Translations under genes and position numbers: made by a program
The notes under the pieces: model-generated
Database searches by the model: none
Seen by the model: only the letters and a program-made list of their open reading frames with translations
What the model was told of the DNA's origin: nothing
DNA from: Escherichia coli
Lineage (GTDB): Bacteria > Pseudomonadota > Gammaproteobacteria > Enterobacterales > Enterobacteriaceae
DNA: 64,000 nt
NCBI RefSeq assembly: GCF_009931435.1
Contig: NZ_CP043414.1
Strand: one strand, 5' to 3'
Part shown: piece by piece, positions 25,863-46,271 of the stretch
Layout: every line of letters begins with the position of its first letter
Position numbering within the stretch: position 1 is the first letter of the stretch

Positions 25863-25952
25863 CGTCATATTATCTATAAAAAAGAGCGTGGATTGGGTAC
25901 AATCCCGCTCTTATCACCGCATTTTGACTAGCTCAATAAAAGAAATCAGACC

Positions 25953-27051
25953 ATGTTTGAAATTAATCCGGTAAATAATCGCATTCAGGACCTCACGGAA
26001 CGCTCCGACGTTCTTAGGGGGTATCTTTGACTATGACGCCAAGAAAGAGCGTCTGGAAGAAGTAAACGCCGAGCTGGAACAGCCGGATGTCTGGAACGAA
26101 CCCGAACGCGCACAGGCGCTGGGTAAAGAGCGTTCCTCCCTCGAAGCCGTTGTCGACACCCTCGACCAAATGAAACAGGGGCTGGAAGATGTTTCTGGTC
26201 TGCTGGAGCTGGCTGTAGAAGCTGACGACGAAGAAACCTTTAACGAAGCCGTTGCTGAACTCGACGCCCTGGAAGAAAAACTGGCGCAGCTTGAGTTCCG
26301 TCGTATGTTCTCTGGCGAATATGATAGCGCCGACTGCTACCTCGATATTCAGGCAGGTTCTGGCGGTACGGAAGCACAGGACTGGGCGAGCATGCTTGAG
26401 CGTATGTATCTGCGCTGGGCTGAATCGCGTGGTTTCAAAACTGAAATTATCGAAGAGTCGGAAGGTGAAGTGGCGGGTATTAAATCCGTGACTATCAAAA
26501 TCTCCGGCGATTACGCTTACGGCTGGCTGCGTACAGAAACTGGCGTTCACCGCCTGGTGCGTAAGAGCCCGTTTGACTCCGGCGGTCGTCGCCACACGTC
26601 GTTCAGCTCCGCGTTTGTTTACCCGGAAGTCGATGATGATATCGATATCGAAATCAATCCGGCGGATCTGCGCATCGACGTTTATCGCGCATCCGGCGCG
26701 GGTGGTCAGCACGTTAACCGTACCGAATCTGCGGTGCGTATTACTCACATCCCAACCGGGATCGTGACCCAGTGCCAGAACGACCGTTCCCAGCACAAGA
26801 ATAAAGACCAGGCCATGAAGCAGATGAAAGCGAAGCTTTATGAACTGGAGATGCAGAAGAAAAATGCCGAGAAACAGGCGATGGAAGATAACAAATCCGA
26901 CATCGGCTGGGGCAGCCAGATTCGTTCTTATGTCCTTGATGACTCCCGCATTAAAGATCTGCGCACCGGGGTAGAAACCCGCAACACGCAGGCCGTGCTG
27001 GACGGCAGCCTGGATCAATTTATCGAAGCAAGTTTGAAAGCAGGGTTATGA
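25953..27051 (+). CDS. prfB: Peptide chain release factor 2, requires programmed +1 ribosomal frameshift at codon 26 (CTT TGA C)
   Basis: ATG at 25953 gives [25 protein letters not shown] then in-frame TGA at 26028-26030; +1 frame continues as [13 protein letters not shown]... to 27051 (track ORF 26170..27051); GGQ motif present. Confidence 0.93.
26016..26031 (+). other. prfB autoregulatory +1 frameshift site (internal SD AGGGGG + CUU UGA C)
   Basis: Sequence agggggtatctttgac read directly. Confidence 0.9.
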
Positions 27052-27060
27052 GGAACCAAC

Positions 27061-28578
27061 ATGTCTGAACAACACGCACAGGGCGCTGACGCGGTAGTCG
27101 ATCTTAACAATGAACTGAAAACGCGTCGTGAGAAGCTGGCGAACCTGCGCGAGCAGGGGATTGCCTTCCCGAACGATTTCCGTCGCGATCATACCTCTGA
27201 CCAATTGCACGCAGAATTCGACGGTAAAGAGAACGAAGAACTGGAAGCGCTGAACATCGAAGTTGCCGTTGCTGGCCGCATGATGACCCGTCGTATTATG
27301 GGTAAAGCCTCCTTCGTTACTCTGCAGGACGTTGGCGGCCGCATTCAGCTGTACGTTGCCCGTGACGATTTACCGGAAGGCGTTTACAACGATCAATTCA
27401 AAAAATGGGATCTCGGCGATATCCTCGGCGCGAAAGGTAAACTGTTCAAAACCAAAACGGGTGAACTGTCTATCCACTGTACCGAGCTGCGTCTGCTGAC
27501 CAAAGCACTGCGTCCGCTGCCGGACAAATTCCACGGTTTGCAGGATCAGGAAGCGCGCTATCGTCAGCGTTATCTGGATCTCATTTCTAACGATGAATCC
27601 CGCAACACCTTTAAAGTGCGTTCGCAGATCCTCTCTGGCATTCGCCAGTTCATGGTGAATCGTGGCTTTATGGAAGTTGAAACGCCGATGATGCAGGTGA
27701 TCCCAGGCGGCGCGGCGGCGCGTCCGTTTATCACCCATCACAATGCGCTGGATCTCGACATGTACCTGCGTATCGCGCCGGAACTGTACCTCAAGCGTCT
27801 GGTGGTTGGTGGCTTCGAGCGTGTATTCGAAATCAACCGTAACTTCCGTAACGAAGGTATTTCCGTACGTCATAACCCAGAGTTCACCATGATGGAACTC
27901 TATATGGCTTACGCGGATTACAAAGATCTGATCGAGCTGACCGAATCGCTGTTCCGTACTCTGGCACAGGATATTCTCGGTAAGACGGAAGTGACCTACG
28001 GCGACGTGACGCTGGACTTCGGTAAACCGTTCGAAAAACTGACCATGCGTGAAGCGATCAAGAAATATCGCCCGGAAACCGACATGGCGGATCTGGACAA
28101 CTTCGACTCTGCGAAAGCGATTGCTGAATCTATCGGCATCCACGTTGAGAAGAGCTGGGGTCTGGGCCGTATCGTTACCGAGATCTTCGAAGAAGTGGCA
28201 GAAGCACATCTGATTCAGCCGACCTTCATTACTGAATATCCGGCAGAAGTTTCTCCGCTGGCGCGTCGTAATGACGTTAACCCGGAAATCACTGACCGCT
28301 TTGAGTTCTTCATTGGTGGTCGTGAAATCGGTAACGGTTTTAGCGAGCTGAATGACGCGGAAGATCAGGCGCAGCGCTTCCTGGATCAGGTTGCCGCGAA
28401 AGACGCAGGCGACGACGAAGCGATGTTCTACGACGAAGATTATGTCACCGCACTGGAACACGGCTTACCGCCGACAGCAGGTCTGGGAATTGGTATCGAC
28501 CGTATGGTAATGCTGTTCACCAACAGCCATACCATCCGCGACGTTATTCTGTTCCCGGCGATGCGTCCGGTGAAATAA
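27061..28578 (+). CDS. lysS: Lysyl-tRNA synthetase (constitutive)
   Basis: Track ORF 505 aa, class II aaRS motifs; recognised LysS sequence. Confidence 0.95.
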
Positions 28579-29417: not shown

Positions 29418-30866
29418 TTATTCTCCATGCTCATTTTTCTTCAGCTTGCGCATCAGAAGCCACATACGTACTGTCCTGACTTTTAAATCTTTATCAGAGA
29501 CGGATTCCTTCACCAGATCAGCATGATGCTGATAGCCATTAAAGAAGACGTTCAGCACAACGGCGCTAAGGGTTGCGAGCATAATGCCGCTATGCAGCAA
29601 CGGTTGCAGTACGGCCGGTAACTTAGAAAAGAAATCGTGTGAGAGCGTCGGAGTCATGCCAACGCCGAGACTGATCGCCACAATATAGAGGTTGTAACGG
29701 TTAGTGGTGTAGTTACAGCGCGACAGAATTCGAATCCCCGTCGCCAGTACCATGCCGAACATCACCAGCCCTGCGCCGCCAAGCACAAATTGCGGAATCG
29801 AGGCTACCAGCACCGCCATTTTGGGCACCATGCCAAACATGATTAATATGATCCCCGAAGAAATACACACCCAGCGACTATGAACGCGAGTCACGCTAAC
29901 CAGGCCAACGTTTTGAGAAAATGACGTGTGGGGGAAGCTGTTAAACGTTCCGCCTATCATTGTCCCTACACCATCGACACGCAGCCCGCGAATAATATCG
30001 TGCGAAGAGAGTTTACGACCGACTATTTCACCCAGTGCCAGGAACATCCCCATCGACTCGATAAACACGATGATTAACACAGCGGTCATGGTTAGAATAG
30101 AAACGGGGTCAAATACCGGCATACCAAACGACATTGGGGTGACAATCGCAAACCACGAAGCATCATGTAGCCCGGACAAATTGACTTCATTCATCATCCA
30201 CGAAAGTAAAAAGCCAAATACAATCCCCAGTAATACGGCGACGTTGGACATAAATCCTTTCGCATAGCGAGTAATGAGCAAGATAAAAATTAAGACGGCA
30301 AAGGAGATACCTAAATAAACGGGATTACCATATTGCGGATTCCCTTTACCTCCAGCGGCCCAGTCAATACCGACCTGAATAATGCTAAGCCCGATAGAAG
30401 TAATAACCACACCGGTAACCAGTGGCGGGAATAAAGGCATTAAGCGACCGATAAGTGGTGCTAATAATGTGGTGATAAATCCCGCGGCGATAGTGGCACC
30501 AAATATCCCCAGCAGGCCGATATCCGGGTTCATGCCAATGGCTATCATTGGTGTTACAGCAGCAAAGGTTACCGACATAATCACCGGCAGACGGATCCCC
30601 ATAAAGCGGCCGATACCGATACATTGTAATAATGTGACGATCCCGCAGCAAAAGAGATCCGAGCTAATGAGCATCGCAATAGCTTCTTTTGAGAGGCCCA
30701 GTCGGTCACCAATCATAAGAGGAACAGCGACTGCACCTGCGTACATTACAAGGACGTGTTGCAGACCGAGTATGATCAGCTTTCCTGGTGATAATATGCG
30801 GTCAACCTCATCAGTTGGGCGGTCTTGCCCTGAAGATGAGGGAAGTTGGGAATCTATGGCGCTCAT
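29418..30866 (-). CDS. uacT: NCS2-family uric acid/xanthine permease
   Basis: Track ORF 29418..30995 (TTG artefact start); recognised protein begins MSAIDSQLPSSSGQDRPTDE at internal ATG; 482 aa, many TM helices. Confidence 0.88.
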   Translation of the reverse strand: MSAIDSQLPSSSGQDRPTDEVDRILSPGKLIILGLQHVLVMYAGAVAVPLMIGDRLGLSKEAIAMLISSDLFCCGIVTLLQCIGIGRFMGIRLPVIMSVTFAAVTPMIAIGMNPDIGLLGIFGATIAAGFITTLLAPLIGRLMPLFPPLVTGVVITSIGLSIIQVGIDWAAGGKGNPQYGNPVYLGISFAVLIFILLITRYAKGFMSNVAVLLGIVFGFLLSWMMNEVNLSGLHDASWFAIVTPMSFGMPVFDPVSILTMTAVLIIVFIESMGMFLALGEIVGRKLSSHDIIRGLRVDGVGTMIGGTFNSFPHTSFSQNVGLVSVTRVHSRWVCISSGIILIMFGMVPKMAVLVASIPQFVLGGAGLVMFGMVLATGIRILSRCNYTTNRYNLYIVAISLGVGMTPTLSHDFFSKLPAVLQPLLHSGIMLATLSAVVLNVFFNGYQHHADLVKESVSDKDLKVRTVRMWLLMRKLKKNEHGE

Positions 30867-31300
30867 CAGTGTTTCTCCTTTCGCCCGCCAGAGTAAAAAG
30901 CAACCGTTTACGTTCATGAAACTGTTTAAACACATGCTCGTGGAGTGCCAGTTTTTGCAAGGAAGGGGAGTTAGAGACAGGAATTGCGGAGGCAATCACA
31001 TAATCGTGATTAAACTACGAAAATGAGAAGAGAACCAGACAGTGGAATTATCTGCAATTTTCTCATATTGATATTTTATTAATCATTCTGGCATGTAGCT
31101 CTCTCGCATTTAATCAAGTTTATCTGGATAGCTCTCTTTTGGACCTTGATGTTGAAATAATGAAAGCGGCACAGATTGAGGGGTAATAATTTGAACTTAG
31201 TCACAAACTTATAATTAAAAAGTCATTCTACCTAATATATGCCCGTTTATTGCATCGCGAACTTTGAGAAGACATAACTCATTAAATGAAAGGGATGCAA

Positions 31301-33220
31301 ATGAATAAGTTTATCGCTGCTGAAGCTGCGGAATGTATAGGCTGTCATGCTTGTGAAATTGCCTGTGCGGTGGCACACAATCAAGAAAACTGGCCGCTGA
31401 GTCACAGTGACTTTCGACCGCGTATCCACGTTGTAGGGAAAGGCCAGGCTGCGAATCCGGTGGCCTGTCATCACTGCAACAATGCTCCTTGCGTTACGGC
31501 TTGTCCGGTTAATGCTCTGACTTTCCAGCCCGATAGCGTACAACTGGACGAGCAAAAATGTATTGGTTGTAAAAGATGCGCAATCGCTTGCCCCTTTGGC
31601 GTCGTTGAGATGGTCGATACGATTGCGCAGAAATGCGACCTTTGTAACCAGCGCAGTTCCGGCACGCAAGCCTGTATTGACGTATGCCCAACACAGGCGT
31701 TACGGCTGATGGACGATAAAGGGTTGCAGCAGATAAAGGTGGCCCGCCAGCGCAAAACGGCAGCAGGAAAAGCGTCATCAGACGCTCAGCCATCTCGCAG
31801 TGCAGCGTTGCTCCCCGTTAACTCGCGTAAAGGCGCAGATAAAATTTCAGCGAGTGAACGGAAAACCCACTTTGGCGAAATTTATTGCGGGCTGGATCCA
31901 CAACAAGCGACTTATGAGAGTGACCGCTGTGTTTATTGCGCCGAAAAAGCTAACTGCAACTGGCATTGCCCGCTGCATAACGCTATTCCGGATTACATCC
32001 GTCTGGTGCAGGAAGGAAAGATTATTGAAGCGGCAGAACTTTGCCACCAGACCAGTTCCTTACCAGAAATCTGCGGCAGGGTATGTCCACAGGACCGTCT
32101 TTGTGAAGGCGCATGTACTTTGAAAGATCACTCTGGCGCAGTCTCTATCGGTAATCTGGAACGCTACATCACCGATACCGCGCTGGCGATGGGCTGGCGT
32201 CCTGATGTCAGCCATGTTGTTCCCCGTATCGAAAAAGTGGCGGTGATTGGCGCAGGGCCTGCAGGGTTAGGGTGTGCTGATATTCTGGCGCGCGCAGGAG
32301 TTCAGGTTGATGTCTTTGATCGCCATCCAGAAATTGGCGGTATGCTGACTTTTGGCATACCTCCTTTCAAACTCGATAAAACGGTATTAAGCCAGCGGCG
32401 AGAGATATTCACCGCAATGGGAATCGACTTTCATCTTAACTGTGAAATTGGCCGCGATATTACCTTTAGCGATTTAACTTCTGAATATGATGCCGTTTTC
32501 ATCGGCGTGGGGACTTACGGGATGATGCGAGCAGATCTGCCGCATGAAGATGCGCCCGGTGTCATTCAGGCTCTACCGTTCCTGACTGCCCATACCCGCC
32601 AGTTGATGGGATTGCCGGAGTCTGAAGAGTATCCGCTGACGGATGTGGAAGGTAAGCGAGTCGTGGTATTGGGCGGTGGCGATACGACCATGGATTGTTT
32701 GCGGACTTCCATCCGCCTCAATGCCGCCAGCGTGACCTGCGCGTATCGTCGTGATGAAGTCAGTATGCCGGGCTCGCGCAAAGAGGTGGTCAATGCGCGC
32801 GAGGAAGGTGTCGAGTTTCAGTTCAATGTTCAGCCGCAATATATCGCTTGTGACGTAGATGGGCGTTTAACTGCGGTGGGCCTTATTCGTACCGCTATGG
32901 GTGAGCCGGGTCCGGATGGACGCCGTCGTCCTCGTCCGGTAGCGGGTTCAGAGTTTGAGCTGCCTGCCGATGTTCTGATTATGGCCTTTGGTTTCCAGGC
33001 GCATGCCATGCCGTGGTTGCAAGGCAGCGGAATTAAGCTCGATAAATGGGGCCTGATTCAAACCGGGGACGTCGGGTATTTACCTACCCAGACGCACCTG
33101 AAAAAAGTCTTTGCTGGTGGGGATGCAGTTCATGGCGCGGATCTGGTTGTCACTGCAATGGCCGCAGGAAGGCAAGCGGCGCGCGATATGTTAACTCTGT
33201 TTGATTCGAAGGCATCGTGA
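31301..33220 (+). CDS. ygfT: Fused 4Fe-4S ferredoxin-like / NAD(P)H-flavin oxidoreductase (GltD/PreT-like small-subunit homolog)
   Basis: Track ORF 31286..33220; N-terminal Cys clusters ([32 protein letters not shown]), central FAD/NAD motif [14 protein letters not shown]; 639 aa from [11 protein letters not shown]. Confidence 0.88.
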
Positions 33221-33708
33221 TGAAATCGTTAATTATCGTTAATCCGGCTGACTGTATTGGCTGCCGTACTTGTGAAGTGGCCTGTGTGGTCGCTCACCCT
33301 TCAGAACAGGAGTTGAATGCCGATGTCTTTTTACCCCGGCTGAAGGTACAGCGACTGGACTGCATCAGTGCGCCGGTGATGTGCCATCAGTGTGAAAACG
33401 CCCCTTGTGTTGGCGCTTGCCCCGTGGGAGCGCTGACGATGGGCGAGCAGGTGGTGCAGGCCAATTCTGCCCGTTGTATTGGCTGTCAGAGTTGCGTCAG
33501 TGCGTGCCCGTTTGGGATGATAACCATTCAGTCGTTGCCGGGGGATACCCGGCAACAAATTGTGAAATGCGATCTCTGTGAACAGCGGGAAGAGGGGCCT
33601 GCCTGCGTTGAATCTTGCCCGACACAGGCGCTGCAGTTGCTTACTGAAAGAGAACTCAGGCGAGTCCGCCAGCAGCGTATTGTTGCCAGCGGTGAGAATC
33701 CTCTCTGA
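33220..33708 (+). CDS. ygfS: 4Fe-4S ferredoxin-type protein
   Basis: Track ORF 33217..33708; four Cys clusters ([38 protein letters not shown]); start codon overlaps ygfT stop. Confidence 0.85.
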
Positions 33709-33711
33709 AAG

Positions 33712-33737
33712 AATTCTCCGCGCTGAAAGGCGCGGAG
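33712..33737. terminator. Bidirectional hairpin between convergent ygfS and ghxQ
   Basis: ttctccgcgctgaaaggcgcggagaa palindrome. Confidence 0.5.
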
Positions 33738-33743
33738 AATCTA

Positions 33744-35111
33744 TTAGATAGCCCATCCACCCGCGTAAAATGCGACCAGTGCGGCAGTAATGATTACCGT
33801 ACCAATATTCAGCTTTTGCCATTCGCGTGCAAAGACGCGGCCTACGACCAGTGTCACAAAGCCCAGCATAATACCGGTAACGATATTACAAGTCAGAACG
33901 ATAAACACGGCACACACCAGGCCAGCCATTGCGTCAATAAAATCGTTGAAATCCAGCTTCGAGACGTTACTTAACATCAGCAAACCTACGTACATCAGAG
34001 CGGGTGCAGTGGCGTAACCAGGGATCAAAAATGACAGTGGTGATAAAAACAGAATCAACAGGAATAACGCCCCCACTACGGTTGCGGTCAACCCTGTTTT
34101 ACCCCCGGCGGCGGTTCCTGCCGCTGATTCGATATAAACCGCTGCGGGCGCAGCACCCACCAGGCCGGAGAATATTGAACTTACTGAGTCACTGGTCAGG
34201 GCTTTACCGCCGTTGATGATCTGGTTGTCTTTATCTAACAAATTCGCCTGACCGGCGACGGCACGGATGGTACCGGTGGCGTCGAACACTGCGGTCATCA
34301 CCAATGCCAGTACACTCGGAAGTACAGTTGGCTGGAGTGCCCCCATAATATCGAGGCTGAAAATCAGAGACTTACCATCTTCGCCAGTCAGACTGGGCAT
34401 CGCCACCAGACCGTGGTACTTCACCGCTGGATCAAAGATTAAGCCGATGATCGAAATTGCAATAATCACCAACAAGATCCCGCCAGGTACGCGGCACTTT
34501 TCCAGACCGAAGATGACCGCCAGACCCAGTAAGCTCATCATCACCGGGAAGGAGGTAAACGCACCGAGCGCCACCGGCAAGCCTTCAATCGGGTTTTTGA
34601 TAACCATTCCCACACCGTTAGCAGCAATCAGCAGCAGAAACAGGCCGATACCGATACCTGTGCCGTGAGCGATACCCATCGGTAAATTACGTAATATCCA
34701 GGTTCGCACACCGGTTACAGAAATGGCGGTGAAGATGACGCCCATCAGAAAGACCGCACCCAGTGCGACAGGAACGCTAATTTGTTGCCCGAGTACCAGA
34801 CTGAATGCGGTAAATGCCGTTAAGGAAATAGCGCAACCAATCGCCATTGGCAAGTTGGCCCACAAGCCCATCAGCAACGAGCCGAAGCCCGCGACCAGAC
34901 AGGTGGCAACAAACACAGCTGCGGGAGGAAAACCTGCTTTGCCCAGCATTCCCGGAACGACGATAACGGAATAAACCATGGCCAGAAAGGTCGTTAAGCC
35001 AGCCAGTACTTCCTGACGAACGGTACTGCCACGAGCGGTAATTTTAAAATAATTATCCAGCGCGCCTTGTGGCTTTGGTGCGTCCGGTGTTTGTAGGATG
35101 TCTCCAGACAT
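33744..35111 (-). CDS. ghxQ: NCS2/AzgA-family guanine/hypoxanthine permease
   Basis: Track ORF 455 aa; polytopic membrane protein. Confidence 0.88.
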
Positions 35112-35146
35112 AATGATGTCCTCACGAGGATGTTAAAGTTTTATTA

Positions 35147-36466
35147 TTAGTTGCGTTCGTACACCAGACGACCATCAACGTAGGTGCGGTAGATCGAACG
35201 GTCATCGCCCAACGTCATCATCACGAACAATTTGTCGACTAAAGAAACAGAGTTGTCATAGCGCAGCTGCTGTAGCGGGGTGGCGGTGGGTTCCATCACC
35301 ACGAAATCAGCCTCTTTGCCAGGTAAAAAGTTGCCAATCAAATCGTCAAGGCCCAGAGATTTCGCCCCGCCGAGCGTGGCAAGGTAAAACGCTTCATATG
35401 CCGAGAGGCGATAGCCTTGTAATTGCAACACTTTGTAGGCTTCGTTCAGCGTTTGCAGCATGTTGAAAGTTGTTCCTGCGCCAATGTCAGTCCCCATGCC
35501 CACTTTGACTTTCTTCTGCCATGCTTTTTTCAAGTTGAATAAGCCACTGCCGAGGTAAAGGTTGGAGGTAGGACAGAAAGCAATGCTGGATTTGGTTTCG
35601 CTGAGACGATCCCACTCTTTCTCTTCGAGATGGACGCAGTGAGCAAAGACACAATTTTTACCTGTCAGACCGTACTGATGGTAAACATCCAGATAACCAT
35701 CATGGTCAGGATAAAGCGATTTGACCCAGGCAATTTCATCTTTATTTTCACAAAGATGGGTATGTACCCATGTGTCGGGATACTCTTCTTTCAGGCGTTG
35801 CGCCATCGCCATCTGTTCAGGAGATGAGGTTGGGGCGAAGCGTGGCGTAATCGCATACAACAGACGACCATTTTTGTGCCAGCGTTCGATCAGTTCTTTG
35901 CTTTGGTGATAGCTGCTTTCGGCAGTGTCGAGCAGATAATCCGGTGCGTTGCGGTCCATCATCACCTTACCGGCAATCATACGCATATTGATATGACTGG
36001 CGGCTTCAAACAGCGCATCAACGGATTGCGGATGAACGGTACCAAACACCAACGCTGTGGTGGTTCCGTTACGTAAAAGCTGCTTGATGAAGAACGCCGA
36101 CATTTCGCGGGCGTACTCTAAATCCTCATAACGACGTTCAGTAGGGAAGGTGTGTTTATTCAACCACTCCAACAATTGTTCACCATAGGCCCCAACCATT
36201 TCACTTTGCGGATAATGGATATGTGTATCGACAAAGCCCGGTACTACCAGTTTGCCGCGATAGTCGCGCACGCGAATGGTGTCAGGAATTTGATGCTTTC
36301 CGTCTTCCCATTCGCCAAACCATTCCACTTTTCCCTGTTTAATGAGTAATAAACCATCCTCAATAAACCGCAGCGCAGAGGCAATCTCTTCCGGGTTATC
36401 GACCGTACGGGTGACATCAATAAAACTGCCTCGTACCGCTTTTAACGTGTGTTCTCCTGACATCAT
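35147..36466 (-). CDS. guaD: Guanine deaminase (amidohydrolase superfamily)
   Basis: Track ORF 35147..36586; recognised start MMSGEHTLKAVRGSF; HxH metal motif (VDTHIHYPQ); 439 aa. Confidence 0.9.
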   Translation of the reverse strand: MMSGEHTLKAVRGSFIDVTRTVDNPEEIASALRFIEDGLLLIKQGKVEWFGEWEDGKHQIPDTIRVRDYRGKLVVPGFVDTHIHYPQSEMVGAYGEQLLEWLNKHTFPTERRYEDLEYAREMSAFFIKQLLRNGTTTALVFGTVHPQSVDALFEAASHINMRMIAGKVMMDRNAPDYLLDTAESSYHQSKELIERWHKNGRLLYAITPRFAPTSSPEQMAMAQRLKEEYPDTWVHTHLCENKDEIAWVKSLYPDHDGYLDVYHQYGLTGKNCVFAHCVHLEEKEWDRLSETKSSIAFCPTSNLYLGSGLFNLKKAWQKKVKVGMGTDIGAGTTFNMLQTLNEAYKVLQLQGYRLSAYEAFYLATLGGAKSLGLDDLIGNFLPGKEADFVVMEPTATPLQQLRYDNSVSLVDKLFVMMTLGDDRSIYRTYVDGRLVYERN

Positions 36467-36480
36467 TGACTCCTTTACTG

Positions 36481-37881
36481 TTAATCCATCTCTTCCGCTG
36501 AGGTAATACCAGGCAGAACGTTTTCCTGTCGGTAGCCACCAGGGAGGATAATATTTAATAAAATCGCAGTTAATCCACCAGCACAAATAGGGTTTTCAAC
36601 TAATACATAAATAGAGGCTGGCAATATTTTAAAAATTTCCGGGTCGTAGGAGACGCCAAGCCCTAAACCTAAAGAAGTGGCGACAATAAGTGTTTCACGG
36701 CGCTTTAATCCGTTGGTGATGATGATGCGAATCCCAGCGATGGCAATCATGGAAAACATCAACGTCATTGCGCCTCCCAGAACAGCCGAGGGAATGGTCG
36801 TGAAGAAGCCGCCAATCATCGGAAACAAGCCGAGAATAACCAACATGACCGCGATGGTTCGCCCGACATAACGTGAAGCGACACCGGTCATCTGAATAAC
36901 CCCATTATTTTGCGCAAACGTGGTTAACGGTAATGAACCGACAGCGGAAGCGATAACCGAAACCAGGCCATCTGCCAGTACGCCGCCTTTCAGACGCGAC
37001 TGATACTCTTCTCCCTGGATGGGGCGGCGGGAAACCATTGCCGTGGCGGTGATATCACCGACAGCTTCCAGCACGCTAAGCAAATAAATCGTGCCGACCA
37101 CCAGGAACTGATGGAAGCTGAAACTAAACCCGTATTTGAACGGATGCGGGATGGTGATTAACGGCAAATTGCGCATACTGCTGAAATCCACCATGCCCAG
37201 GCATAACGACGCGATATAACCGACACATAGCCCAATGGCAATCCCTCCCATGCGTAGTAACGGACTGCGGCAGCAGTTAAAGCCGATCACCACAATCAAA
37301 ACCAATAAACCAACGCCGAGATGTTCGTAATTGCCGAACGTACCGCTGCTTTTGGCAGCAAATCCTCCACCAAAATCGATAATGCCGACTTTAATCAGGC
37401 TTAAGCCGATCATCAGCACCACAATGCCGCTAACGGTAGGTGTAATAACCCGACGTAAATAGGGCAGGATAAAAGAAGAGCCGACAACCAGAAATGCGCC
37501 AACGAAGGAGACGCCGAGAAGCGACGACATGATTAACTCTTCGTGAAAACCATCGCTTTTCATGCTGCTGCCCAGCGCAATCATGACTGTAACAAATGAA
37601 AAATTGACTGACTGAATTGAGAGTAGGCCAGAACCGACGATGCCATAGCGGTTTACCTGTAACCAGGTACCAATACCAGAGGCGATCATCGCCATAGAAA
37701 CAAGATAGGCGGTTGTTTCAGCGGAAAGCTGTAAGGCCGCACCCACGATTAACGCAGGGGTTACCATCGGAACGAAAATTGCCAACAGATGGGTAATGGC
37801 ACCAACGAGAGCCTGATGAAAGGGAGGGCGATCCTCCAGTTCAAATATAAGGTCAGAACCTGCATGGTTTATATCAGACAT
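36481..37881 (-). CDS. xanQ: NCS2-family xanthine permease
   Basis: Track ORF 36481..37938; recognised start MSDINHAGSDLIFELEDRPPF; 466 aa. Confidence 0.9.
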   Translation of the reverse strand: MSDINHAGSDLIFELEDRPPFHQALVGAITHLLAIFVPMVTPALIVGAALQLSAETTAYLVSMAMIASGIGTWLQVNRYGIVGSGLLSIQSVNFSFVTVMIALGSSMKSDGFHEELIMSSLLGVSFVGAFLVVGSSFILPYLRRVITPTVSGIVVLMIGLSLIKVGIIDFGGGFAAKSSGTFGNYEHLGVGLLVLIVVIGFNCCRSPLLRMGGIAIGLCVGYIASLCLGMVDFSSMRNLPLITIPHPFKYGFSFSFHQFLVVGTIYLLSVLEAVGDITATAMVSRRPIQGEEYQSRLKGGVLADGLVSVIASAVGSLPLTTFAQNNGVIQMTGVASRYVGRTIAVMLVILGLFPMIGGFFTTIPSAVLGGAMTLMFSMIAIAGIRIIITNGLKRRETLIVATSLGLGLGVSYDPEIFKILPASIYVLVENPICAGGLTAILLNIILPGGYRQENVLPGITSAEEMD

Positions 37882-38011
37882 CCCTTCACTCCTTTTAAAG
37901 TAAATTTGATCATCTGAATCAGTAAAATAAATTCCCACGAATTTGGGGCGCAGGACGCCTTGAGAACGGCTTATCTCATTTTCGCAGTCAACTATTTAGT
38001 CATCGTTCAAA

Positions 38012-38037
38012 CAGAGAAACAGGCCGCCGAAGCGGCC
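38012..38037 (-). terminator. Terminator-like hairpin downstream of xdhD (ggccgcttcggcggcc + T-rich tail on minus strand)
   Basis: Inverted repeat aggccgccgaagcggcc read on plus strand. Confidence 0.5.
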
Positions 38038-38046
38038 ATTTATTAT

Positions 38047-40917
38047 TTATATTTTTTCCAGCGCGGTGAGTATTTTCTCCGGTGTGAAATGCCATTCGCG
38101 TAACCAGATGCCGCAGGCATCGTGAATTGCGGTAGCAATCGCCGGAGCTGCGCCATTTACACCGATTTCTGAGATTGATTTCGCCCCGAATGGGCCGACT
38201 TTATCGTCGCTCGGCACCAGCACAGCGCGGAAATCACGCGGAATGTCACCAATTTTCGGTGCGCCGTAACTGCGTAAATCACGCGTTAACGGGTGGCCTT
38301 CGGCGTCATAAATGATTTCTTCGCTCATACTGTGCCCGATAGCACGCAGGGTGGCTCCGTAGATTTGTCCCAACGCTAACTCTGGATTGACCGGTGTACC
38401 ACAGTCCAGCAAGGCGTAGAATTTATCCAGGCGGATTTCACCCGTACGTGTGTTGACGGCAACTTCAGCAAAGTTTGCGCCATACGGGAAGGCGAAATCA
38501 GGCGTGATATAACTGGCAGTTCCCACCAGTGAACCAAAACCGGTGCCGGTTTCGCCTTTATGGGCAATATCCCCGAAACTAACTTCGCCTTTCTTGCCGC
38601 GCACGACGCCCGGCGTTGCTAGTTGAACATCTGCCACTGGCTCACCCAACATTTGCGCGCCGTGGAACAGAATTTTATCCCGCAGATTTTCCGCTGCCAA
38701 ACGCGCCGCGTTACCCGAGAAGCAAGTACCGGACGAGGCATATGCGCCTTTATCAAACAACGCATGATCGGTATCACCGGAGATAACATGCACGTCCTGC
38801 GGTGGGCAGTGCAGCACTTCTGCTGCCAGTTTCGTCACCACGGTATCCAGACCAGTACCAATATCCGCACCGCCAGAATGAACAATAAAGGTACCGTCCG
38901 ATTCCAGTTTAATCATGCAGTTAGCCTGATCGATATCCGGGATCCCCGATTTCTGCATGATAATGGCGACGCCGCGACCGATGTGCCAGTCACCATTTTG
39001 CGGTTTTGGTGAAGACCATTGGATCATCTCGCGACCCTGACGCAGGATCTCTTCCAGCGCGCAGCTGGCGGCGGAAGGAACGGAGGTCGGCGCTTTACCT
39101 TCACCAATCGCACCGAGAATTTTCAGCTCTTGCCCTTCGTGTACCCGGTTACGTTCGATAATTTCCAGTTGGTCGATCTGTAACTGTTCAGCCAGTTCCG
39201 CTAATGCCATAGTGATAGCGAAGTTACCTTTCGGTGCACCATAACCCTGATAAGCACCATTTGGACAAATGTTGCTGTAGTAGGTGGTGACCTGGAAATC
39301 GACGTTATCGCACGGATATAACGGCAGCGACAGCGCCGGTCCGTTACATGGTACGGTGAGTGAGTGATTGCCGTAAGGGCCTGTGTTGGCGCGGAAATCC
39401 ATCTTCACGGCCGTCAGGCGACCATCTTTCTTTGCCCCCAGTTTGACGGTGACTTTCGCGACGTGACGAGAGGTGTTAGCAATAAACTCTTCTTCACGGG
39501 TGTAGCGGAACAGTACCGGACGCCCGGTCACGCAGGTTGCCCAGGCGCACACTTCTTCCAGCAGGATGTCCTGTTTAGACCCAAAACCGCCGCCAACTCG
39601 CTCTTTAATTACATGAACTTTATGTTGTTTCATGCCCACGAGGCGCGCGACCTGGCGGCGTAAGTGCCATGGTACCTGGGTGGAGGCGTGGATAACCAGA
39701 CGATCGCCGTCCATACGGGTAAAGCATATATGAGTTTCAGTCGGGCACTGCTGCGCCTGCGTTGAGTTATAGGTTCGCTCAATGATCACATCGGCATCGG
39801 CAAAGCCTTTGTCCATATCGCCAATATGACCATGAATACTGGCGGCGATATTTTTACGGGGGCGAGAACCGATCGGGAAGTTGATGATCATATGCTCGCC
39901 GCGCTGGGCTGCATGGCTGTTATCGTCTTCCAGAGTATCTGGCGCACCAGCAACATACACCACCGGTTCATCGTGCACGACAGGCGCATCTTCCGCCATT
40001 GCCTCGTCAATCGACATTACAGGTTTAAGCACTTCATATTCAACGTCGATGAGCTTCAGTGCTTCGAGCGCAATTTCTTCACTTTCTGCGACGACCGCAG
40101 CAACGCGATCGCCGACGTGACGCATTTTCTTGCCGAACATACGGCGGTCAAGCGGTGACGGTTCCGGTGCGCTCTGACCACCCGGGGTGTAGTAGATATC
40201 CGGGCAATTCAGATGAGTAATAACGTGGACGACGCCTGGTAAGGCTTCAGCTTTGCTGACATCCAGGTGAGTAATCAGTGCGTGAGCGTGAGGGCTACGT
40301 AACATTTTAATGACGCAGGCGTCAGCCGTTACGCGGTCTTCAACATAGCAGGGTTTCGCCTGCACCATTTTTGCGGCATCAGTTTTAGGATAATGCTTAC
40401 CAATGACTTCAAGGTCATCGCGGAAAGTCGGAGCGATATCAATGGTGGCCTGCGGGTTATTTTTACGTGCAACCGCCAGTTCAATGACCTGATAGTATTG
40501 TTGCCAGCCTGCATCGCGACTGAACAAACCAGAAAGCGCGTCGTCGATCTCTTCGCGGGTCGGTGCGGCGATACGCTCGAGCAGATCAGTGATAATCAGA
40601 GCCGCAGCTGGATCGTTATAACCAGACTGCACCACGCCAACATCAACCATTGCCTGTTGAACCAGACTTAACTCGTTCCATTTGCCCAGAGACTCTGCGG
40701 TACGAATATCTGCCTTCTCTAACTGTGCGGCGATAAGCAAGGACGCGTTAACGATATTACCGTTAAAGATAATTGCGTCAGAACCGGCAAACCCGAATCC
40801 ATCATCGCTGTTGCGTACAGAGTGCATTCCCATGTTAAACAACAGCTTTTGCACGTTTTCGCCTGGATTAACGGTTAGCTCCTGAGGCGCGCCATTTAAA
40901 GTAAAGTGGATGATCAT
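38047..40917 (-). CDS. xdhD: Molybdenum-hydroxylase family protein with fused N-terminal 2Fe-2S domain and C-terminal molybdopterin domain (xanthine-dehydrogenase-like)
   Basis: Track ORF 956 aa; aldehyde oxidase/xanthine dehydrogenase family features. Confidence 0.88.
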   Translation of the reverse strand: MIIHFTLNGAPQELTVNPGENVQKLLFNMGMHSVRNSDDGFGFAGSDAIIFNGNIVNASLLIAAQLEKADIRTAESLGKWNELSLVQQAMVDVGVVQSGYNDPAAALIITDLLERIAAPTREEIDDALSGLFSRDAGWQQYYQVIELAVARKNNPQATIDIAPTFRDDLEVIGKHYPKTDAAKMVQAKPCYVEDRVTADACVIKMLRSPHAHALITHLDVSKAEALPGVVHVITHLNCPDIYYTPGGQSAPEPSPLDRRMFGKKMRHVGDRVAAVVAESEEIALEALKLIDVEYEVLKPVMSIDEAMAEDAPVVHDEPVVYVAGAPDTLEDDNSHAAQRGEHMIINFPIGSRPRKNIAASIHGHIGDMDKGFADADVIIERTYNSTQAQQCPTETHICFTRMDGDRLVIHASTQVPWHLRRQVARLVGMKQHKVHVIKERVGGGFGSKQDILLEEVCAWATCVTGRPVLFRYTREEEFIANTSRHVAKVTVKLGAKKDGRLTAVKMDFRANTGPYGNHSLTVPCNGPALSLPLYPCDNVDFQVTTYYSNICPNGAYQGYGAPKGNFAITMALAELAEQLQIDQLEIIERNRVHEGQELKILGAIGEGKAPTSVPSAASCALEEILRQGREMIQWSSPKPQNGDWHIGRGVAIIMQKSGIPDIDQANCMIKLESDGTFIVHSGGADIGTGLDTVVTKLAAEVLHCPPQDVHVISGDTDHALFDKGAYASSGTCFSGNAARLAAENLRDKILFHGAQMLGEPVADVQLATPGVVRGKKGEVSFGDIAHKGETGTGFGSLVGTASYITPDFAFPYGANFAEVAVNTRTGEIRLDKFYALLDCGTPVNPELALGQIYGATLRAIGHSMSEEIIYDAEGHPLTRDLRSYGAPKIGDIPRDFRAVLVPSDDKVGPFGAKSISEIGVNGAAPAIATAIHDACGIWLREWHFTPEKILTALEKI

Positions 40918-43074: not shown

Positions 43075-46000
43075 TTACACCTCCACGCGGCCCAGCAGAT
43101 AATGATGATGCTGGTGGACATGGCTAATGATGCGGCACATATCGTTCAGCTCCGGTGGTACGTTGTTGAACTGACCTTCGCTGTCGATGTTTAACACCCA
43201 GCTTTGGTTATTCAGACGTACTCGTACCCGGCAATCTTCCACAAGGAAGCCTGGGTTGCTGCTGTTATCAAAGTCTTGCGACAGGCTGAAGACGGTGATT
43301 TTGTCTTTGTACGGTTTACCGTTCCACGGACAGAACTGAGCACAGTTGCCGCATTCGTTACAGTAAGCGTCGAGGTGCAGCGTCTGGAAACGGTTCTGGA
43401 AGCCAGGGACCGCAATGGATACGTTGGCGCGGTTCGGGCAGACATCCACACACTTGCTGCAAACGTAGTTACATTCAAGGCAGCGAGCGGCTTCCTGGGC
43501 GACAAACGCGTCACGATCGTCGCTATCCACCAGGGTGATAGAGATATCGCCTTTGCGTTGATAGATTTCCGCCGGATTGACGTTGTTCCAGTATTTATCG
43601 TTCTGGTGGGAACGGATATTTTCCCGACTAAGGATGGCATCGGTAGCCCGACGCGCAGTTCCGACAGCAGCGACAATGGAGGATGGTCCGCGCTGTACGT
43701 CGCCGATCATAAAGACGTCAGTCAGACGAGTTTCGCCATTATGGTCGACGTCTGGCCAGCCATTTTTGTCCAGCGGCACGCCCATCGCATTCAGGGCTTC
43801 AGTATCCTGCTGTTCGCCAATGGCGGTGATCAGGCTGTCTACATGCAGTGTTACTGTTTCGTTGGTTTCAACCGGACGGCGACGACCTTTCTCATCAGGT
43901 TCGCCAAGCGACATAACGCGCAAGGTTAAGGTGCCATCAGCATCGAAACGTTCCGGATTATTCAGGAAACGGAACTCCACGCCGTCGTGCAACGCTTCTT
44001 CATACTCTTCGCGCCATGCGGGCATCTCTTGCAGTGAACGACGATAAACGACCGTTGCTTTTTCTACGCCTGGAACGCGTAACGCCGCACGAGCGCAGTC
44101 CATTGCGGTGTTACCCGCCCCGACAACGACCACATGCTTGCCCAGCTTGAGCGTAGTGCCTTTGTTGTATTCACGCAGGAAGGGGAGTGATTTCCACACA
44201 TTTTGGTTGTCGCCCGCCAATTTCACACCGCTATTTTTATCAGTGCCGGTGGCAATCAGAACATAGTGGAAGCCCTGATTTTTTAACTGTTCAACGGTCA
44301 GATCGGGTGAGCAGCCATACTCAAATTTCACGCCGTGAGCGGCAACAAAATCGATATCGTGCTGAATTAACTCTGCAGGAATACGGAACTGAGGAATGAT
44401 ATTTTTCACCACGCCGCCCGCATTGGCTTCGCGTTCAAACAGCGTAACCGGATGGCCCGCTCTGGCAAGGAAGTAACCTGCTGCCAGACCCGCCGGACCT
44501 GCACCAATCACGGCAACCGGATGGCGTGAACCAGAACCGGCTGGTTTGTGCCAGCGTTGCTTATATTCATCCCAACCTTTTTCCAGCGCGACTTTTTTCA
44601 GTTCGCGGATATTCAGCGCACTGTCGTAATCCAGGCGGGTACAGTTGTATTGGCACTGGTGATCGCAAATATGACCGGTAATGGCGGGCAGGGCGTTGCG
44701 TTGGTAGATGAGTTCCAGTGCGTCGGCATAGCGGTGTTCGCCAAGCAGACGGATGTATTCCGGAATATCCTGTTTAATGGCGCAAGCAGTAACGCACGGT
44801 GCAACGTAGCAGTCGGTCAGCGGCAGGTCTTCTGCCACTTCAATACGCTCTTCTGGCTTCCAGTGTTTCTGCGTGTATTCCATGGTTAACGCGTCTGCTG
44901 CCAGTTTGTTCAGTCGTTCGACGTCAACATGGTCAAGCCCCCAGGCGTCGGAGCCTTCCAGCTCGCGCATGCAGGCACTTAAGCGCAGATAGCCGCCAGG
45001 TTTCAGCAGGTCGGTTGCCATAGTAATAGGGCGAATACCAGTATCAAAAATATCGCGGATAGTCAGCTGACTGGCACCACCGGAATAAGAAATGGGCAGT
45101 TTGCCGTCAAAGGCGCGAGAGAGAACTGCTGCAACATTGATGGAGAGCGGGAACAGCGCACGGCCTGACATATACATCTCTTCACCAGGCAGTGCACCTT
45201 TGTTATTAATGGTGCCGAGGGTATTGGTCAGTTTGACGCCAAAGCCGAGTGATTTTTCTTTTGCCAGTACCATCAGGCGTTCCAGCATTTCCAGCGCTTG
45301 CGTCAGCTTGAGGTCGTGATCAAATGACTCTTCTTTTAAGCCTATGTAACCGAAACCGCAGACATCGAGGATCTCACGAACACGCGCGTACCCCAGTAAG
45401 GTCGGGTTGAGTTTCACAAAGGTATTGAGCCCTTTTTCTTCCAGCATGTAGCGGCAAATGGCTTCGATTTCATGCGGAGGACAGCCGTGCATCGTGGAGA
45501 GGGTAACGCCTTGTACCATGCTGGTGGGGATGCGTGCCGGTAAGGCCTGCAAGCATTCGCGTTTTTCCTGTAAGCCGTGGCGGGCTAAAAATGCGTCATC
45601 CTGGAGTAATTTATTCAGCGTATCGCGATATTGAGCGAATTTCGGATGGTCAGATGCGTCCATCATATTATCGATGAACTGTTGCATCGGCGGTTGCTTA
45701 ATACCTTCGAGGTTGTAACCGACGCTCATATTAAAGATGAACGATTTACCGGAATCAGAAGGCTGGAACATCGCTTCGAGAAGGTGCAGGGCAAACCAGG
45801 CTTTGAGGTATTCATCCCAGGCTTTAAGCAGGGTAAATTCGGTGGACCATTCGGTGTTAAAGCACTCGTCTTCGGCATCAATACAGGGCTTTTCCAGCTC
45901 CAGGCGGTCAAGAATTTGGACGGTTTTTAGTTCGATGAAGCGTCCGCCAGTCAGCCAGGATGTGACAATATTTTGCGCGAGCTGCGTGTGCGGACCAGCG

Positions 46001-46173
46001 GCAGGGCCGACGGGAGTGGCACAGGTTTCACCGAAGACGCTAACAGTTTTACCTTTTACGGGTGAGTAAAACTGTTGCTCGGGAATACCAAAGATTGAGC
46101 GTTGTTGTTGGTATTCATCAAATATGCGCGTCAAAAGTTCCTCAAACGGAATGGGACGCATAATATCCCCCAT
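43075..46173 (-). CDS. ygfK: Large Fe-S / FAD-NAD(P) oxidoreductase (historically annotated putative selenate reductase subunit YgfK)
   Basis: Track ORF 1032 aa; GAGPAG dinucleotide motifs and C-terminal Cys clusters (CxxCxxCxxxCP). Confidence 0.88.
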   Translation of the reverse strand: MGDIMRPIPFEELLTRIFDEYQQQRSIFGIPEQQFYSPVKGKTVSVFGETCATPVGPAAGPHTQLAQNIVTSWLTGGRFIELKTVQILDRLELEKPCIDAEDECFNTEWSTEFTLLKAWDEYLKAWFALHLLEAMFQPSDSGKSFIFNMSVGYNLEGIKQPPMQQFIDNMMDASDHPKFAQYRDTLNKLLQDDAFLARHGLQEKRECLQALPARIPTSMVQGVTLSTMHGCPPHEIEAICRYMLEEKGLNTFVKLNPTLLGYARVREILDVCGFGYIGLKEESFDHDLKLTQALEMLERLMVLAKEKSLGFGVKLTNTLGTINNKGALPGEEMYMSGRALFPLSINVAAVLSRAFDGKLPISYSGGASQLTIRDIFDTGIRPITMATDLLKPGGYLRLSACMRELEGSDAWGLDHVDVERLNKLAADALTMEYTQKHWKPEERIEVAEDLPLTDCYVAPCVTACAIKQDIPEYIRLLGEHRYADALELIYQRNALPAITGHICDHQCQYNCTRLDYDSALNIRELKKVALEKGWDEYKQRWHKPAGSGSRHPVAVIGAGPAGLAAGYFLARAGHPVTLFEREANAGGVVKNIIPQFRIPAELIQHDIDFVAAHGVKFEYGCSPDLTVEQLKNQGFHYVLIATGTDKNSGVKLAGDNQNVWKSLPFLREYNKGTTLKLGKHVVVVGAGNTAMDCARAALRVPGVEKATVVYRRSLQEMPAWREEYEEALHDGVEFRFLNNPERFDADGTLTLRVMSLGEPDEKGRRRPVETNETVTLHVDSLITAIGEQQDTEALNAMGVPLDKNGWPDVDHNGETRLTDVFMIGDVQRGPSSIVAAVGTARRATDAILSRENIRSHQNDKYWNNVNPAEIYQRKGDISITLVDSDDRDAFVAQEAARCLECNYVCSKCVDVCPNRANVSIAVPGFQNRFQTLHLDAYCNECGNCAQFCPWNGKPYKDKITVFSLSQDFDNSSNPGFLVEDCRVRVRLNNQSWVLNIDSEGQFNNVPPELNDMCRIISHVHQHHHYLLGRVEV

Positions 46174-46254
46174 AACCCTCTCCTTAGCTTATACAGATAT
46201 CATTGAGTGACCGGTGTTGAGAAATCCGGTGGTTTAGGGGGATAGAGCAACAAT

Positions 46255-46271
46255 CGCACCACTCTTGCCAG
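46255..46271 (-). promoter_or_regulatory. Candidate sigma54-like promoter upstream of ygfK: minus strand CTGGCAAGAGTGGTGCG (GG-N10-GC)
   Basis: Read directly; ~85 nt upstream of ygfK ATG; -12 element GTGC deviates from TTGC. Confidence 0.35.

Follow-up and report, generated by a model that had tools for sequence, protein, structure and literature searches.

In the 64,000-nt stretch of Escherichia coli DNA analysed here (the window), ygfT and ygfS form a translationally coupled two-gene operon within the anaerobic urate-degradation regulon, and their products probably work with FdhF (FDH-H) as a formate:NADP+ oxidoreductase, a soluble electron relay that would supply NADPH to YgfK. The genes and their role have already been published and we describe no new entity; what is new here is the conservation of the pair across genera, its adjacency to ssnA-ygfK and the FdhF gene found in the cluster. 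Gut bacteria that degrade urate anaerobically lower the urate of their host, and the pathway is being built into anti-gout probiotics.

The ygfT gene (uacF) lies at 31301..33220 on the + strand (639 aa; ATG at 31301, TGA stop at 33218-33220) and ygfS at 33220..33708 on the same strand (162 aa; ATG at 33220, TGA stop at 33706-33708). Stop and start overlap in TGATG (33218..33222, + strand; 33217-33222 reads GTGATG), which by its sequence is translational coupling; the first-pass annotation had placed both genes and their overlap exactly to the base. This overlap is kept in 13 orthologous loci across genera: it is TGATG in Escherichia, or GTGA if the upstream GTG serves as start; Citrobacter sp. 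MGH106 and the remaining genera have ATGA (one Kluyvera has GTGA), with AAGGAGG preceding it in most of the non-Escherichia loci. A Shine-Dalgarno AAGGGA can be read before ygfT (31290..31295, + strand); placed 5-7 nt before the ATG, it is kept in most of 16 orthologous loci and altered in Citrobacter sp. R56, Enterobacteriaceae RIT693 and the Cedecea aegA-like locus. Two in-frame ATGs upstream of the ygfT start (31286 and 31295) are used by no ortholog, and the Shine-Dalgarno of ygfS is GAAGG, 7 nt upstream of its start. These are the same genes as K-12 YgfT (b2887, UacF) and YgfS (b2886), with identities of 633/639 and 160/162 (99%), in the same locus, with the divergent uacT on the upstream side, the convergent ghxQ on the downstream side and an identical overlap. 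The 2408-bp ygfT-ygfS stretch has matches in 5204 of 5426 complete E. coli genomes, where it is annotated as ygfT/ygfS, and about 4% of the complete genomes are without it.

Upstream, the urate:H+ symporter gene uacT (ygfU; 29418..30866, - strand; TIGR03173, 509 bits) diverges from ygfT across a 434-bp control region common to both genes. This divergent layout is retained in every orthologous ygfT locus examined, and the aegA-like locus of Cedecea sulfonylureivorans is without uacT. A sigma-54-type promoter element, TATGCCCGTTTATTGCA, is found 47-63 nt upstream of the ygfT ATG (31238..31254, + strand), and the identical 17-mer is listed as a K-12 sigma-54 ChIP-seq site for ygfT. Its core, TTGCATCG, is invariant at 15 of the 16 loci compared, which come from seven genera, and the sequence around it diverges. 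Taken alone the motif is weak, with 3 mismatches to TGGCAC-N5-TTGCW: the -12 part, TTGCA(T), is conserved, and the -24 part is non-canonical (ATGCCC or GCGCCT instead of TGGCAC). When the window was scanned for the consensus at ≤2 mismatches, matches were not enriched (41 vs 44 expected) and the ygfT site was missed; the known ygfK and ygeW sites were recovered. Consensus scans for sigma-70 promoters and intrinsic terminators over 30900-33900 returned sites no commoner than in shuffled sequence, none of them usefully placed. Published data show that urate strongly induces ygfT and ygfK, and the YgeV iModulon includes ygfT, xdhA-C (xdhABC), xdhD, ygfM, ygfK, ssnA and uacT. The co-expression with the hydroxylases that the first-pass annotation looked for, in proposing these genes as an electron module for purine reduction, is thus found.

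YgfT matches the NCBIfam YgfT equivalog NF009451 at 1497.4 bits (cut-off 1154) over residues 1-639 of 639, and its genomic position, divergent from uacT and with ygfS next, fits this assignment. The protein has three parts: a HycB/HydN-type domain, a linker and a GltD module, in which Pfam recognises Fer4_11/Fer4_7 (aa 1-140), Fer4_20 (188-298, 126 bits) and Pyr_redox_2 (312-623, 91 bits); the same Pfam search found no DHO_dh domain. Residues 1-140 (31301..31720, + strand) make up the polyferredoxin domain, whose 16 Cys are arranged in four [4Fe-4S] motifs (C12/15/18/22, C56/59/64/68, C87/90/93/97 and C112/115/125/129) and are all invariant in 17 YgfT/AegA sequences, and likewise in 33 sequences. 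Among the structures that this domain matches are HycB from formate hydrogenlyase (7z0s_B, 3.8e-30) and HycB3/HycB4 from HDCR. The linker (about residues 141-185; 31721..31855, + strand) is poorly conserved, with little conservation across it in the consensus alignment, and is modelled with low confidence (AlphaFold pLDDT 54-57 at residues 151-180, below 50 at 157-164 and 172-176; mean 80.5 for the whole model); on this model, the linker appears to be flexible. Residues 186-639 (31856..33217, + strand) form the GltD-type module, with two [4Fe-4S] sites (C210/213/219/223 and C258/262/268/272, aligned with the GltD cysteines), a FAD motif (GAGPAGL) and an NADPH motif (GGGDTTMDC...CAYRRDE..MPGS), both motifs, including the Arg pair of the latter, common to GltD. 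Altogether, the motifs of YgfT predict an Fe-S flavoprotein that carries FAD and has six [4Fe-4S] sites besides a site for NADPH.

The nearest known relative of this module is GltD itself. YgfT scores 847.2 bits against the gltD family TIGR01318 (cut-off 482.95) and is 58% identical to GltD (PDB 6s6s_G, 2vdc_G) over 461 aligned residues, with a TM-score of 0.90-0.91; the GltD reference is the 472-aa protein encoded directly after 1486-aa GltB. The eight cluster Cys, the FAD motif and the NADPH motif are common to both proteins. In Foldseek the module reached TM-scores of 0.87-0.91 to 6s6s_E, 6s6t_E and 5jca_L (GltD and the NfnI large subunit). The fusion of a ferredoxin domain to a GltD-like NAD(P)H/FAD domain that had been read from the window is upheld by the Pfam order and the TIGR01318 score, and with GltD homology this strong the domain searches support the earlier proposal. 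GltD differs in that it lacks an N-terminal polyferredoxin and works bound to GltB, whereas YgfT has its HycB-like domain in the partner's place; no gltB was found near ygfT, and in true gltBD loci the 472-aa GltD comes directly after a 1486-aa ORF.

YgfS is a free-standing ferredoxin of the HycB/HydN type with four [4Fe-4S] motifs (Pfam Fer4 families), all 16 cluster Cys of which are invariant in 14 orthologs, and it matches HycB (7z0s_B) at 1.9e-30. Against the HydN equivalog NF007658 (cut-off 260), YgfS reaches 134.5 bits and the YgfT N-terminus 119.9 bits, both below the cut-off, so by these scores the two are paralogs of HydN, not HydN itself. They have the same four-cluster Cys pattern as HycB, HydN and YsaA, the tetra-[4Fe-4S] partners of FDH-H, for which a published phylogeny describes one paralog group; unlike these three, YgfS/YgfT are not encoded with hydrogenase genes. 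The HDCR proteins HycB3/HycB4 (7qv7) follow at E-values of 1e-27 to 1e-28, against ~1e-30 for HycB. The formate/FDH-H link, and the fact that the ferredoxin parts are of the HycB/HydN type that docks FdhF, had been missed by the first-pass annotation. YgfS is 45% identical to the N-terminal domains of YgfT and AegA alike, and, given this equal distance, we discarded a recent tandem duplication of the ygfT 5' end as the origin of ygfS. A pseudogene was rejected as well, since the conserved cluster Cys and coupled start rule out decay of ygfS. Nevertheless, Citrobacter sp. R56 has ygfT and no ygfS, and in E. coli no ferredoxin gene adjoins aegA, showing that YgfS is not always indispensable.

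The overlapping pair is kept in at least seven genera (Escherichia, Citrobacter, Enterobacter, Kluyvera, Cedecea, Raoultella and Intestinirhabdus). In the genera other than Escherichia and Citrobacter, the pair directly abuts ssnA-ygfK, and an FdhF gene lies by the pair in 8 of 12 such loci (seven, plus one cut by a contig end). This cluster-linked fdhF comes after uacT and a small yqfG-like ORF and is divergent from ygfT-ygfS; its product has 715 aa and 92% identity to K-12 FDH-H, with Sec encoded by an in-frame TGA within VDCCARV-U-HGPSVAGLHQ. No sigma-54 motif of its own was seen at cluster-linked fdhF. In most of the other genera, a molybdenum hydroxylase operon is found 2-3 genes off, beyond uacT and, where present, fdhF.

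The pathway that these genes accompany is published to consume four electrons. YgfK is the NADPH:2,8-dioxopurine reductase, which reduces the purine ring and in E. coli requires NADPH, not NADH; in both 2025 pathway papers the reductant was artificial (NAD(P)H, or dithionite plus methyl viologen) and YgfT/YgfS were left out. E. coli is reported to require aegA or ygfT for the urate degradation that depends on formate and FDH-H (Iwadate and Kato 2019, as cited in later papers), and AegA/YgfT have been proposed as carriers of electrons from FDH to NADP+ or urate. AegA (b2468) is the YgfT paralog of E. coli: 54% identical over its full length, it has the same HycB-like and GltD-like layout and the same cysteines, and a GltD module 67% identical to GltD, against 58% for YgfT. 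Published work assigns it the same role as YgfT in formate-dependent urate degradation. Unlike ygfT, aegA is only modestly induced by urate, and in E. coli it is monocistronic between nudK and narQ, with no purine genes near.

We favour as probable the relay stated at the outset, in which FdhF would oxidise formate and electrons would enter through the HycB-like modules, YgfS being the likely FdhF-docking adaptor by analogy with HycB and HydN elsewhere. About ten [4Fe-4S] clusters would then carry them to the FAD of YgfT, where NADP+ would be reduced, and the NADPH would pass to YgfK; low-potential electrons may also reach the molybdenum hydroxylase directly. This direction of flow through YgfT/YgfS is one that we infer. 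In support of the formate relay, both ferredoxin parts match HycB at ~1e-30, and in formate hydrogenlyase this subunit is the carrier of FdhF. A literature search for an NADP-dependent formate dehydrogenase with a GltD-like beta subunit (Moorella Moth_2312/2314) yielded no usable precedent. Two findings on AegA count against the relay: in bacterial two-hybrid assays the protein did not interact with FdhF, and deletion of aegA did not lower the dye-linked activity of FDH-H. AegA bound strongly to HydN, YsaA and HycB, however, and for this reason we put an adaptor of the HydN kind between the fusion protein and FdhF. Also against the relay, in vitro NADH allows XdhD-YgfM of E. coli to reduce urate and added NADPH supports YgfK, so that the pathway can be reconstituted without YgfT/YgfS.

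If YgfT/YgfS and FDH-H are the physiological formate link, the formate dependence of E. coli would be explained, and possibly that of termite-gut Enterococcus too. Engineered strains may then need ygfTS, fdhF and a formate supply for the full pathway rate, and FDH-H would gain a documented second job outside hydrogen production.

Electrons might instead run the opposite way: YgfT would oxidise NADPH as GltD does and pass the electrons through its Fe-S clusters and YgfS to the molybdenum hydroxylase that reduces urate (XdhD, or in other genera the three-subunit XDH-like enzyme), whose physiological reductase would be YgfT-YgfS. The 58% identical GltD normally moves electrons from NADPH through FAD and [4Fe-4S] to its partner, the molybdenum hydroxylase operon is close by in most other genera, and neither NADH nor NADPH works with the clostridial 2,8-dioxopurine dehydrogenase. 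We nevertheless consider this reversal unlikely, as it explains neither the published requirement for formate and FDH-H nor the FdhF gene beside the pair, and in E. coli XdhD purifies together with a FAD subunit of its own, YgfM, and takes electrons directly from NADH. NADPH is moreover a weaker reductant than formate for the potential expected of the step: its potential is -320 mV, and the xanthine/urate step is expected near -360 mV or below.

The structural matches raise another reading, flavin-based bifurcation or confurcation, in which the FAD of YgfT would act as in NfnB and the cis ferredoxin domain and YgfS would be two separate branches connecting low-potential formate electrons, NADP(H) and one further partner. 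Structurally, YgfT is matched best by the NfnI large subunit (5jca_L, E 1.4e-45, TM-score 0.87), followed by a group to which the bifurcating NfnABC and StnABC complexes belong; two polyferredoxin modules are at hand, and a review has raised the possibility for AegA. The GltD-like NADPH/FAD/2x[4Fe-4S] subunit of NfnAB, NfnABC and StnABC (PDB 5jca, 4ylf, 9bov, 9n5u, 8oh5) indeed has the same fold; its identity to YgfT, however, is 35-37%, and the YgfT module is much closer to the non-bifurcating GltD. An NfnA-type FAD/[2Fe-2S] subunit or domain (PF10418, FNR-like) is absent from YgfT and YgfS, and no sign of a second nucleotide site was found. PF10418 was detected in genuine NfnA-NfnB fusions among distant homologs (P0157, P0222). 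Bifurcation by YgfT is thus the less parsimonious reading, and an improbable one. The same low standing is given to a more elaborate proposal, a long shot in our estimation, that FdhF, YgfS and YgfT form a dedicated soluble complex in which the YgfT flavin would bifurcate or confurcate, sending low-potential formate electrons straight to the urate-reducing hydroxylase while NADPH is made for YgfK. The HycB-like modules might then polymerise as in HDCR filaments, and the cluster fdhF (Enterobacter, Kluyvera, Cedecea, Raoultella) would encode the catalytic subunit, with FDH-H moonlighting outside formate hydrogenlyase.

Confurcation, and a likeness to PreT/PreA, had also been put forward in the first-pass annotation, and here the resemblance holds at the level of the module only. 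PreT/PreA, mammalian DPD and YgfK have the Fer4_20 and Pyr_redox_2 module in common with YgfT; in PDB searches, however, DPD (3.8e-44, 28% identity) ranks well behind GltD (3.8e-108), and DPD, PreA and YgfK carry a substrate-reducing FMN domain that YgfT/YgfS do not have. No PreA-like partner (DHODH-fold FMN domain plus two [4Fe-4S]) was recognised, YgfS matching only Fer4 and HycB-type models. YgfK itself is encoded at 43075..46173 on the - strand (TIGR03315, 1781 bits) and is 1032 aa long, the length first given for it. Its supposed kinship in architecture with YgfT is partial: the two are 34% identical over the GltD-like module (YgfT 217-632 vs YgfK 458-849; Fer4_20 at 453-532 and Pyr_redox_2 at 552-839 of YgfK), but YgfK has no HycB-like N-terminus.

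That YgfT/YgfS are instead a general anaerobic redox accessory of the HydN or YsaA kind, beside purine genes by accident and with ygfS a decaying duplicate, fits with the paralog aegA lying far from purine genes, a distant AegA-like/YgfS-like pair in an unrelated neighbourhood, the few E. coli genomes without the pair and the absence of ygfS from Citrobacter sp. R56, but it is largely refuted, and very improbable, in view of the synteny with uacT and ssnA-ygfK over seven genera, the induction of ygfT by urate and its place in the YgeV iModulon, the published genetic requirement, and the conservation of the 16 YgfS cluster Cys and the coupled start.

An exhaustive search of 1.84 billion representatives turned up a single further full-length HycB+GltD representative (P0121); the remaining long matches carry N-terminal modules of other kinds (NapH-like Fer4_5 or NfnA-like PF10418). 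A distant AegA-like representative located outside any purine cluster is followed directly by a YgfS-like gene. The DNA of the window belongs to an uncommon E. coli lineage; its YgfT and YgfS differ from those of K-12 by few substitutions, among them an extra, seventeenth Cys at YgfS position 48, which is Ser in K-12. At the other end of the operon, ygfS and the convergent ghxQ are 35 bp apart, and in this gap lies a strong stem-loop (33701..33751) that was not called by a simple intrinsic-terminator scan and has no T-run; with an MFE of -27.7 kcal/mol (z = -6.2 vs shuffles), it is probably a bidirectional transcript end.

The ygfT (uacF)-ygfS pair is already known and a functional assignment for it has been published. 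On the plus strand of the window, ygfT runs from an ATG at 31301 to a TGA at 33218-33220 (639 aa), behind a Shine-Dalgarno sequence read as AAGGGA at 31290-31295 (plus strand), and ygfS runs from an ATG at 33220 to a TGA at 33706-33708 (162 aa, plus strand). Two in-frame ATGs upstream of ygfT, at 31286 and 31295, are unused. The products are identical to K-12 YgfT (b2887) and YgfS (b2886) at 633/639 and 160/162 positions, and of 5426 complete E. coli genomes, 5204 carry a match to the 31301-33708 DNA and have it annotated as ygfT/ygfS. No match was found in the other 222, with recJ-lysS present in all but one. At 24129-28578 or 31301-33708, genomes with at least 99% identity number just 3-5 among more than 5200 complete E. 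coli genomes (nearly all others, 95-99%), which places the window in an uncommon E. coli lineage.

The stop/start overlap TGATG at 33218-33222 (plus strand), proposed in the first-pass annotation, is base-exact, 33217-33222 reading GTGATG. Escherichia loci have TGATG, or GTGA should the GTG upstream serve as the start. Citrobacter sp. MGH106 has ATGA, as do Enterobacter, Kluyvera (GTGA in one case), Cedecea, Raoultella and Intestinirhabdus; in these last five genera AAGGAGG precedes it at most loci. This conserved overlap supports translational coupling of ygfT and ygfS. Downstream, the 35-bp gap between ygfS and convergent ghxQ is occupied by a stem-loop (-27.7 kcal/mol, z = -6.2).

AegA, a YgfT paralog, and YgfT have long been recognised as ferredoxin + GltD fusions, and a review counts them the least understood of the GltD-module proteins. 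The fusion ascribed to YgfT was borne out: residues 1-140 match 4Fe-4S dicluster families, with Fer4_20 at 188-298 and Pyr_redox_2 at 312-623 (Pfam), and the protein scores 1497 bits against the YgfT equivalog (cut-off 1154) and 847 bits against the gltD family TIGR01318 (cut-off 483; both NCBIfam). Among solved structures, the matches of the N-terminus are the formate hydrogenlyase subunit HycB (7z0s_B, 3.8e-30) and HycB3/HycB4 of hydrogen-dependent CO2 reductase. The C-terminal 450 residues match GltD (6s6s_G, 3.8e-108), the NfnB-type subunits 4ylf_B and 5jca_L and, less strongly, dihydropyrimidine dehydrogenase (3.8e-44). GltD is a far nearer relative of the flavoprotein half than PreT or dihydropyrimidine dehydrogenase. 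In an AlphaFold model built from 33 homologs (mean pLDDT 80.5, low-confidence linker at ~151-180), this half gives TM-scores of 0.87-0.91 to GltD and the NfnI large subunit. Many loci in the genome scan matched residues 187-635 only (59-60% identity) and are genuine gltBD, where a 1486-aa ORF immediately precedes the gene for a 472-aa protein. Aligned with this genuine GltD, YgfT shows 58% identity and AegA 67%; all three carry the eight cluster cysteines together with an FAD motif (GAGPAGL) and an NADPH motif (GGGDT(T/A)MDC...CAYRRDE..MPGS), which marks the YgfT half as a recent GltD paralog with predicted NADP(H) use. Taxonomically, the exact HycB+GltD fusion is narrow, the best 150 of 1.84 billion representatives including a single further example.

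YgfS matches ferredoxin models only (Pfam), and its best structural relative is HycB (1.9e-30). HydN, YsaA, HycB, HyfA, AegA, YgfS and YgfT form one paralog group, and YgfS shares 45% identity with the N-terminal domain of YgfT and likewise with that of AegA. Its HydN equivalog score (134.5 bits, cut-off 260) rules out HydN itself and makes it a HydN paralog. All 16 cluster cysteines are invariant in 14 orthologs whose overall identity falls to 55-60%; a remnant is thereby rejected, and YgfS is in all appearance a functional four-cluster ferredoxin. A seventeenth cysteine, at codon 48 (33361-33363), is seen in 1 of the 14 orthologs, the YgfS of the window; K-12 has Ser there and other Escherichia Ser or Arg.

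The gene order in the window is uacT< >ygfT >ygfS <ghxQ <guaD <xanQ <xdhD <ygfM <ssnA <ygfK. In Escherichia and Citrobacter, the ghxQ-ygfM block (~8 kb, 33744-41693) stands between ygfS and ssnA; it is absent from the 12 loci outside these two genera. In Enterobacter, Kluyvera, Cedecea, Raoultella, Intestinirhabdus and other Enterobacteriaceae, ygfS adjoins ssnA-ygfK, and beyond uacT, on the opposite side, there is a separate three-subunit XDH-like operon. Identity of this operon to XdhA is 28%, and at one Enterobacteriaceae locus (L009) it encodes a 1095-aa subunit with the Mo and FAD parts fused. For uacT (ygfU; minus strand, 29418-30995), the longest ORF starts at TTG 30995 (525 aa) and the annotated, conserved start is ATG 30866 (482 aa). 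Citrobacter sp. R56 (L006:11911-11975) is missing ygfS, with ~55 bp from the ygfT stop to ghxQ, and its ygfT is intact (639 aa, 80% identity). A distant AegA-like protein (L086:8001-10544; 670 aa, 55% identical to YgfT), whose dcrB/yhhS-type neighbourhood is free of purine genes, has a gene for a 170-aa YgfS-like ferredoxin 19 nt downstream, making the two-gene unit ancestral; E. coli aegA has no adjacent YgfS-like gene.

The most informative result of the analysis is the adjacency of an fdhF gene, encoding the selenoprotein formate dehydrogenase H (FDH-H). At 7 of the 12 loci outside Escherichia and Citrobacter (L009:5750-7894, minus strand; L010, L012, L013, L015, L016, L020), plus one cut by a contig end (L019), fdhF lies within the urate cluster, just past uacT and a short yqfG-like ORF, and is oriented divergently from ygfT-ygfS. 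These genes, from Enterobacter, Kluyvera, Cedecea and Raoultella, encode 715 aa, 92% identical to K-12 FdhF, with an in-frame TGA (selenocysteine) in the context VDCCARV-U-HGPSVAGLHQ; no sigma-54 motif of their own was seen at those loci. No fdhF was found within the window, and K-12 fdhF lies 1.27 Mb from ygfT-ygfS. The literature searched, Iwadate and Kato (2019) apart, makes no mention of this synteny. According to papers citing it, that study showed aegA or ygfT to be needed for formate- and FDH-H-dependent urate degradation, a link missing from the first-pass annotation, and proposed that electrons pass from FDH to NADP+ or to urate.

The coupled, urate-regulated pair YgfT-YgfS is predicted from its motifs to hold single FAD and NADPH sites along with about ten [4Fe-4S] sites, and the idea of an electron module holds. 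This analysis contributes comparative support (conserved coupled pair, ssnA-ygfK adjacency, embedded FdhF gene, GltD-grade NADPH site). Rather probably, electrons run from formate through FdhF, YgfS and YgfT to NADPH for YgfK: FdhF would oxidise formate, HydN-like YgfS would dock FdhF and hand electrons to the YgfT ferredoxin domain, and these would pass via the GltD-type clusters and FAD to NADP+. This order agrees with the cluster-linked fdhF of other genera, with the homology to HycB and with the two-hybrid behaviour of AegA, which binds HydN, YsaA and HycB and not FdhF. YgfK is itself the ring reductase. In the urate pathway, by now defined, XdhD-YgfM converts urate to 2,8-dioxopurine, with NADH as in vitro reductant; YgfK with SsnA next carries out ring reduction and opening, and E. 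coli YgfK requires NADPH, not NADH. Its supposed relatedness to YgfT stands for the common GltD module (34% identity) but not for the HycB-like domain, which it lacks. NADPH-driven electron delivery to the molybdenum hydroxylase is unlikely. Less likely still is Nfn-like bifurcation, the NfnB-type matches of YgfT notwithstanding: no NfnA-like partner was found for YgfT/YgfS, and the likening of the pair to confurcating systems, as to PreT/PreA, fails on the partner subunit. Two 2025 pathway studies give YgfT and YgfS no role.

In published data, urate strongly induces ygfT and ygfK, and the YgeV iModulon comprises ygfT, xdhA-C, ygeW-Y, hyuA, ygfK, ssnA, ygfM, xdhD and uacT; ygfT is therefore co-expressed with the hydroxylases, and a general, non-purine role for YgfT-YgfS is very improbable. 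Upstream of ygfT, the 17-mer TATGCCCGTTTATTGCA (31238-31254) matches the published sigma-54 ChIP-seq site for this gene, reported with the sequence TATGCCCGTTTATTGCA; the -12 core, TTGCAT, is unchanged at 15 of the 16 loci compared, which span seven genera, and the -24 element is non-canonical. A second conserved element (31200-31215, ~45 nt further upstream, at the equivalent position in L004-L020, the ygfT loci of other genomes) has the sequence TCGCAAAAAT in most genera, Escherichia having GTCACAAAC/TTATAATTAAAA, and may be a site for IHF or an activator. Also present in the window, on the minus strand, are the sigma-54 promoter motifs published for ygfK (TGGTGCGATTGTTGCT, 46246-46261) and ygeW (TGGCACACTTATTGTT, 55883-55898). 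By the annotation of a genome 99% identical, ygeV, which encodes the activator, and xdhABC are located further downstream.
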